In this document: positions 575-774 of the stretch, one piece after another
Numbering within the stretch: the stretch's first letter is position 1
How the letters are laid out: the number at the start of each line of letters is the position of its first letter
NCBI RefSeq assembly: GCF_000840405.1
Contig: NC_000867.1
Origin: Pseudoalteromonas phage PM2
Strand: one strand, 5' to 3'
Length of the DNA stretch: 10,079 bases
Made by a program: the position numbers and the translations under genes
Notes under the pieces: generated by a model
Seen by the model: the letters and a program-made list of their open reading frames with translations, nothing else
What the model was told of the DNA's origin: nothing
The model's database searches: none

Positions 575-753
575 ATAGTTATTTAACCAGCGCGGAAGAT
601 TTAACGATGATTTTTTTAGATTGCTAAACAGAGTTCAATTAATAAAATTGATTAATGGTAAATTATAGAAAACTTATATAAATAACAGTTAGATAGGATT
701 TTAACACGCAACAGGGAAAAGGCGACAGAATGACGGATTTATAGTTATTTAAC
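575..753 (+). repeat. 13-bp direct repeat ATAGTTATTTAAC (575-587 and 741-753)
   Basis: Exact copies read from the sequence. The second copy overlaps the outer XerD arm of the dif-like site. Confidence 0.9.
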
Positions 754-774
754 ATAATATAAATCGTAAGCACG
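747..774 (-). other. XerC/XerD recombination site (dif-like, candidate attP or resolution site)
   Basis: Minus strand reads CGTGCTTACGA-TTTATA-TTATGTTAAAT. The XerD arm is identical to E. coli dif, the 6-bp spacer differs from TGTATA at one base, and the XerC arm matches cer (GGTGCGTACAA) at 8/11. Confidence 0.88.

Follow-up and report, generated by a model that had tools for sequence, protein, structure and literature searches.

[quoted passage not shown] A preliminary description of the same DNA had raised this possibility, and our sequence comparisons support it on four counts: the site is conserved, the phage has no recognizable integrase, a gene of the XafT family adjoins the site, and relatives of PM2 join foreign DNA at junctions within it. 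The window analyzed here is the whole record (AF155037.1, 10,079 bp), with BLAST of positions 1–1400 returning 100% identity.

On the minus strand, positions 774 to 747 read CGTGCTTACGA-TTTATA-TTATGTTAAAT, a 28-nt stretch with an 11-6-11 layout whose sequence and position agree exactly with what had been claimed. It is made up of a XerD-binding arm (747–757), a 6-bp central region that is common to PM2-like genomes and host-type sites (758–763), and a noncanonical XerC-side arm (764–774), of which the inner 7 nt (764–770) are conserved and the outer 4 nt (771–774) are variable. The site is flanked by Orf a (77–550, minus strand) and Orf c (850–1128, minus strand) and overlaps the small annotated Orf b/b* (663–755 and 663–773, minus strand). 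The XerD arm deserves the term "perfect" that it had been given: TTATGTTAAAT terminates the dif sites of Aeromonas, Idiomarina, Shewanella, Nitrosococcus, and Erwinia in the table printed by Carnoy and Roten, and the Vibrio dif consensus printed by Ma and Zhang (2025), ATTTAACATAA, agrees with it as well. The other arm had been called cer/dif-like, and here the resemblance to dif is weak: by hand count it matches the printed arms of Idiomarina or Shewanella at 6 of 11 positions, that of Erwinia at 5 of 11, and the degenerate Vibrio consensus at 7 of 11, and its inner four bases are ACGA, with the canonical innermost ATAA absent.

The 28-nt site is present in a single copy, with no second copy at three or fewer mismatches in the PM2 genome and none of 200 shuffled sequences containing any. 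The exact 11-nt XerD arm also occurs once (shuffle mean 0.03, with at least one copy in 5 of 200 shuffles), and allowing up to one mismatch yields two matches against 0.74 expected. The second of these (9552–9562, inside gene VI) was rejected as a candidate site, its left half not being dif-like. By itself, then, the XerD arm is modestly unlikely to arise by chance, and the weight of the argument rests on conservation and on junctions.

Conservation was assessed in an alignment of five genomes, namely PM2, Cr39582 (91% identical over 1–1400), GXT1010 (74%), and two IMG/VR contigs, and in a sixth PM2-like genome found via Orf a (L140); all six were retrieved independently of the site. A block of 24 nt, comprising CTTACGA, the spacer, and the XerD arm, is invariant in all five aligned genomes, while both of its flanks vary, the outer four nucleotides of the XerC-side arm reading CGTG, TGTA, TGTG, TGTT, or GGTT. 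The sixth genome has CTTACTA instead of CTTACGA. All six genomes agree in spacer and XerD arm, and the XerD arm is the same in every PM2-like genome and junction inspected. With spacer and XerD arm constant in six of six genomes and 24 nt invariant in five of five, a chance match is very unlikely. The broader proposal that the site is either such a match or a regulatory element that takes no part in recombination, such as an operator or a piece of Orf b, could draw on the shuffles that hold an exact XerD arm, on the overlap with Orf b/b*, and on a weak promoter-like match over the site. Set against the invariance of the 24 nt amid diverged flanks, the junctions at 747 and 764 described below, and the fact that Orf b is unannotated in the Cr39582 RefSeq record, this proposal is so improbable as to be nearly negligible.

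Evidence for a role in integration comes from contigs of four public runs that we compared with the PM2 genome. One contig of a seawater run (X1) matches PM2 at 9478–10078 and then at 7–764, with 37 differences in the 758 letters of this second piece, before running into 26 unlike letters; another begins with about 1 kb of unlike DNA, matches 747–1583 (33 differences in 837 letters), and continues on to 6610. The pieces are 95–96% identical to PM2. These two junction contigs overlap exactly at 747–764, 18 nt that correspond to the XerD arm, the spacer, and one further base, and the presence of this segment at both junctions is what an attL and an attR should show. In isolates X9 and X18, too, contigs cease to match PM2 at position 764, and X19 contains a circular form of 10,772 nt that spans the site. 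Apart from the junctions, two stretches are mosaic hot spots of the PM2 group: at 1583–1796 (Orf e region) and 7902–8948 (spike gene I), X1, X18, and X19 carry unrelated DNA that differs in length from that of PM2; the spike swap is in line with Leigh 2018.

Further integrated relatives were found by scanning viral contigs with the 18-nt core, which returned at least 109 loci. In the provirus L045, one end reads ACTTCCTATAA-TTTATA-XerD arm, followed by an Orf a homologue and structural genes, and at the other end an Orf c homologue is followed by GCTTCCTCCTG-CAAACA-XerD arm, such that the two junctions have only the XerD arm in common and each has its own spacer. In two more proviruses, L097 and L122, the Orf a homologue is immediately preceded by a host-type site. 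The IMG/VR provirus G001 (L125) carries a full PM2-like gene set, including homologues of Orf a (70%), P12 (80.6%), and Orf c (80%), and after Orf c comes a hybrid site, ATAGCTTACGA-TTTATA-TTATGTTAAAT. Among the matches listed, the DNA beyond this site is 72–97% identical to the XerD-side DNA of 12 other records, whose sites carry nonphage left arms, mostly ACTACCTATAA. In one of these records, L073, the site is only about 190 nt away from a host response-regulator gene, with no element in between, and the locus looks like an empty target.

Several neighbors of these sites are worth recording in their own right. The same Mu-like prophage-type region, 72–97% identical, lies on the XerD side in 12 records (L073:900–5200, L125:12525–16000, and others); it carries a head-morphogenesis F-like gene and a portal-like gene and looks like a conserved, perhaps domesticated, element beside the host site. 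Two inovirus contigs with a Zot-like assembly gene (L124:395–6840 and L091) end in ATAGCCTATAA-TTTATA-XerD arm, and at the other end of L124 a host left arm is joined to sequence without a XerD arm. The left arm at the Orf a-side junction of X1 is the left arm of these inovirus contigs, and this common arm in X1, L124, and L091 suggests that filamentous and PM2-like prophages sit in tandem arrays. L126:7551–10153 (G005) holds a gene with 33.5% identity to the replication protein P12 of PM2, some 1.5 kb away from a host-type dif-like site, PM2 genes other than this P12-like one being absent; this is perhaps a further small rolling-circle element that occupies the locus. Lastly, viral contigs of 4–14 kb (L025, L032, L035, L037, L046, L059, L070, L076, and about 15 more listed) have GAGTCTTATAA-type left arms followed by TTTATA and the XerD arm, with a conserved purine-rich stretch ahead, and probably represent another family of Xer-exploiting elements.

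Metagenomes, scanned with the 24-nt core, yielded nine contigs, of which four have the attP order Orf c–site–Orf a, two are truncated and probably attP, two are foreign-flanked, and one is ambiguous. The foreign-flanked contigs, L130 and L134, both show Orf c and then the site; the flank of L130 resembles that of X1, and the flank of L134 is 78–90% identical to twelve XerD-side flanks from the viral contigs. Integration at a dif-like site is observed for the relatives X1, L125, and L045 (the last at both junctions), and the conserved locus makes this target a putative host dif.

The pattern CTTACGA-N6-XerD arm occurs in 7 records among 185,579 representative genomes (four Flavobacteriales, two Bacillales, and one Acutalibacteraceae MAG), which by rough estimate is chance level; none is from Pseudoalteromonas, indicating that integrated PM2-type elements are absent from the scanned reference genomes, and none lies beside PM2 genes. 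Capsid protein P2 had no relative in the genome contigs (162 pattern matches) and, by tblastn, no match among plasmids. That PM2-type junctions were not found in representative genomes would suit the idea that the site is an inherited relic of a plasmid or temperate ancestor, with PM2 no longer integrating and the site having no role in the lytic cycle. So would several published points: PM2 is reported to be virulent (Krupovic and Bamford 2007), and, according to Krupovic 2007, plasmid pAS28 has been proposed as the source of the leftward operon, and laboratory propagation does not require gene XV. Decay is what one would expect of a relic, but here both flanks vary and the core is constant; moreover, the PM2 site has exactly the core seen in the integrated X1 element and in the inducible Cr39582, and PM2 has an intact Orf a with 97% identity to the versions in both. 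On balance, we regard a relic as unlikely.

The host side of the reaction can be described from sites that lack a phage arm. Host-type sites of the form xxxxCCTATAA-TTTATA-TTATGTTAAAT are present in many viral contigs (L073, L017, L093, and others, among the matches listed), and their central region is identical to the PM2 spacer. Other host-type sites beside Orf a homologues have the spacers ATTACG or TTTACG (L141:2775–2802, L145:539–566, L005:14346–14373), and it appears that the central region varies by host lineage, with the XerD arm constant.

The site in L097 lies about 70 nt from a gene for a 402-aa tyrosine recombinase that is 74% identical (298/401) to one encoded on an 855-kb replicon of P. 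xiamenensis (NZ_CP072135.1), where an Orf a homologue (57%) lies about 210 nt from the dif-like sequence ACAACCGATAA-ATTACG-TTATGTTAAAA. A conserved tyrosine recombinase of 402–404 aa accompanies the host dif-like site (L097:1–1309, L005:4098–5362), as does a palindrome of about 24 nt of the GTCCGATA...TATTGGAC type (L005:14346–14420, L073:490–600, and L097). On the P. xiamenensis replicon, two direct-oriented sites with XerD arms bound an island that begins with the Orf a homologue and has the recombinase gene at its other end, about 9 kb from the site. Loose dif patterns gave counts on this replicon not above those of a reversed-pattern control, and no orthologue of the response regulator was found on it (matches 23–28% identical); host-flank DNA had no match among plasmids and weak Mu-like matches among phages. 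Taken together, one 74% protein match and the palindrome point to Pseudoalteromonas as the probable host genus of the integrated relatives. Prophages and dif2-like sequences have been described at dif2 of Pseudoalteromonas chromids (Xie 2021).

The proximity of this gene invites the proposal that the 402-aa recombinase, and not XerC, or not XerC and XerD alone, carries out the recombination. It lies about 70 nt from the site in both L097 and L122 and has its counterpart in P. xiamenensis, a palindrome lies between gene and site in L073, L097, and L005, and the host left arm xxxxCCTATAA is unlike the gamma-proteobacterial XerC arms in the printed tables. The XerD arm is canonical, however, and Orf a falls in a family of XerD activators; the recombinase itself is weakly XerC/XerD-like, scoring 67.7 bits against a cutoff of 335. 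We consider its involvement highly doubtful.

PM2 itself has no recognizable tyrosine recombinase: PF00589 found no match in six frames of the whole genome, and 14 of 14 control genomes were positive. What does adjoin the site is Orf a (157 aa; 77–550, minus strand), a candidate XerD activator of the XafT/VC1465 family with a putative DUF3653 domain. Residues 19–104 match NCBIfam NF040522 ("VC1465 family Xer recombination activation factor") with an E value of 1.9e-7 and a score of 31.2 bits, below the curated cutoff of 70, and all six Orf a homologues examined match the same model (best E 6.4e-11). For Pfam DUF3653, PM2 Orf a scores 21.6 bits, just under the cutoff of 22.4; of the four homologues compared, those of L097 (22.9) and L045 (31.8) are over it, that of L125 (21.0) is under it, and that of P. 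xiamenensis gave no Pfam match to the domain, making two of five proteins that pass. With scores below the curated cutoffs, Orf a is a probable member of the XafT/VC1465 (DUF3653) family of XerD activators. Midonet 2019 assigns the activation of XerD by XafT to its DUF3653 part and reports that genes encoding DUF3653 mostly adjoin dif. In the proviruses L045 and L097, the Orf a homologue directly adjoins the site, so that Orf a is the terminal gene at one end of the prophage form.

The opposite terminal gene of the prophage form is Orf c (92 aa; 850–1128, minus strand), a small regulator that is the last phage gene ahead of the junction in L045, L125, L130, and L134. It matched no family in Pfam or NCBIfam, and its homologue in Cr39582 is annotated by RefSeq as an HTH DNA-binding protein. 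Between the XerD arm and the start of Orf a lies a conserved noncoding stretch (551–746, minus strand), blocks of which, such as the A-rich ATCTAAAAAAATCATC, are conserved in alignment from PM2 to the P. xiamenensis replicon. Because Orf a and Orf c come to lie at opposite ends of the prophage, 551–746 may supply Orf a with its own promoter. A scan for consensus promoters was at chance level (4 found vs 2.7 expected), and the conserved blocks could be an operator, a promoter, or accessory sequences for recombination. The description of p15 by Ma and Zhang (2025) as a xafT homologue adjoining gp-k and transcribed oppositely fits Orf a.

An Orf a that acts on XerD could also serve another end. 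The site might mainly resolve multimers in the manner of cer or psi, with Orf a replacing FtsK and integration being a side reaction. PM2 is annotated as replicating by rolling circle with P12, its module is common to a plasmid maintenance region (Krupovic 2007), and XafT can drive recombination of plasmid-borne sites (Midonet 2019). Such a role would be compatible with integration and does not exclude it, and several relatives are integrated exactly at the site; as the main function of the site, multimer resolution seems quite unlikely.

With the site taken as attP, we propose recombination between the circular form of a PM2-type genome and a dif-like site of the host, the two sites being alike in XerD arm and in TTTATA. 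Orf a and Orf c would be parted by this event and the phage thereby linearized, and the left end of the product would run from host DNA through host XerC arm-TTTATA-XerD arm into Orf a and on to the structural genes, and the right end from Orf c through phage XerC-side arm-TTTATA-XerD arm back into host DNA. As the product would keep host XerC arm-TTTATA-XerD arm, an intact dif would be regenerated. We consider it reasonably likely, on the family assignment of Orf a, that this protein activates XerD independently of FtsK and that XerD makes the first strand exchange, after which XerC or replication would complete the reaction. Dependence on XerC and XerD, the order of strand exchange, and integration by PM2 itself are what we infer.

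The same strand order had been said to fit the spacer, whose single mismatch with that of Escherichia coli dif (TGTATA) is on the XerC side, with the XerD side matching. That argument is void: the target sites carry TTTATA just as PM2 does, and comparison with TGTATA is therefore uninformative on strand order. XerD-first exchange is nevertheless plausible on other grounds, since a XafT-family gene adjoins the site and since the XerD arm is perfect and invariant, in contrast to the noncanonical left arm. The spacers at the two junctions of L045 also differ, being TTTATA next to the host XerC arm and CAAACA next to the phage arm, from which we infer a crossover at or inside the XerD arm; a free form of an L045-type phage was searched for and not found.

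Several known systems resemble the one proposed here. Among Vibrio prophages, the dif-type double-jelly-roll (corticovirus-like) group, to which NO16 belongs, agrees with PM2 in gene order (Kalatzis 2023; Ma and Zhang 2025). Its members are linearized between their p15 and p16 homologues, and, like the PM2 group, have no integrase, a dif-like attP, and dif-like sites flanking the prophage. PM2 differs from them in its host, Pseudoalteromonas, in its CTTACGA-TTTATA, which departs from the Vibrio consensus, and in not itself being known as a prophage. Chromosomal dif and the plasmid sites cer and psi have the 11-6-11 layout and canonical XerD arm seen in PM2, whereas the left arm of PM2 is noncanonical and PM2 is a mobile element; sites of the cer/psi type have about 180 bp of accessory sequences beside the core for accessory proteins. 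The filamentous IMEXs CTX-phi and VGJ-phi also exploit host XerC/XerD at dif and form tandem arrays. Reactions of the CTX-phi/VGJ-phi type are XerC-first, that of CTX-phi taking place on a folded single strand, and both are filamentous whereas PM2 is an icosahedral dsDNA phage.

A closer parallel is TLC-phi, a satellite phage of Vibrio cholerae that also combines a dif-like attP with a gene of the DUF3653/VC1465 family activating XerD without FtsK (Midonet 2019; Miele 2022). TLC-phi and PM2 each have exactly the central region of their target. The arms are mirror images: in TLC-phi the XerD arm is degenerate and the XerC arm good, whereas PM2 has a perfect XerD arm and a noncanonical XerC side. 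PM2 Orf a scores below the family cutoff. We tentatively entertain, with less than even confidence, the full proposition that PM2 is a functional temperate IMEX of a class mirroring TLC-phi, with a canonical XerD arm, a spacer copied from the dif-like site on the second replicon of Pseudoalteromonas, a conserved noncanonical XerC-side arm, an XafT-like Orf a, and XerD-first exchange. In such a phage, the unusual left arm would serve to make FtsK-driven prophage loss less frequent.

The Xer site of PM2 is already in print, having been published in 2023 and 2025. Kalatzis 2023 printed the same 28-bp PM2 site as a presumptive dif site, and Ma and Zhang (2025) present 747–763 as a 17-bp dif-like attP between p15 and p16 and class the dif-type double-jelly-roll prophages as IMEXs. 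Earlier, corticoviral prophages were all described as linearized between genes XV and XVI (Krupovic and Bamford 2007). Leigh 2018 reports mitomycin induction of Cr39582 only, with no integration site, and the claim of validated Cr39582 excision by Ma and Zhang exceeds that report. Integrases are frequent in the tailless prophages at Vibrio dif, for which Steensen 2024 left open whether host recombinases or their own are at work. To this record, which like our own evidence is computational, we add junction-level evidence for near-identical relatives of PM2, targets that carry the central region of PM2, and an independent match of Orf a to the XafT family.

In conclusion, the phage on which the Corticoviridae were founded has been viewed as strictly lytic for more than 50 years. 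An intact Xer module implies that PM2 or its nearest kin can be prophages at the dimer-resolution site of the chromosome, which bears on how small nontailed prophages are found and delimited in marine bacteria.
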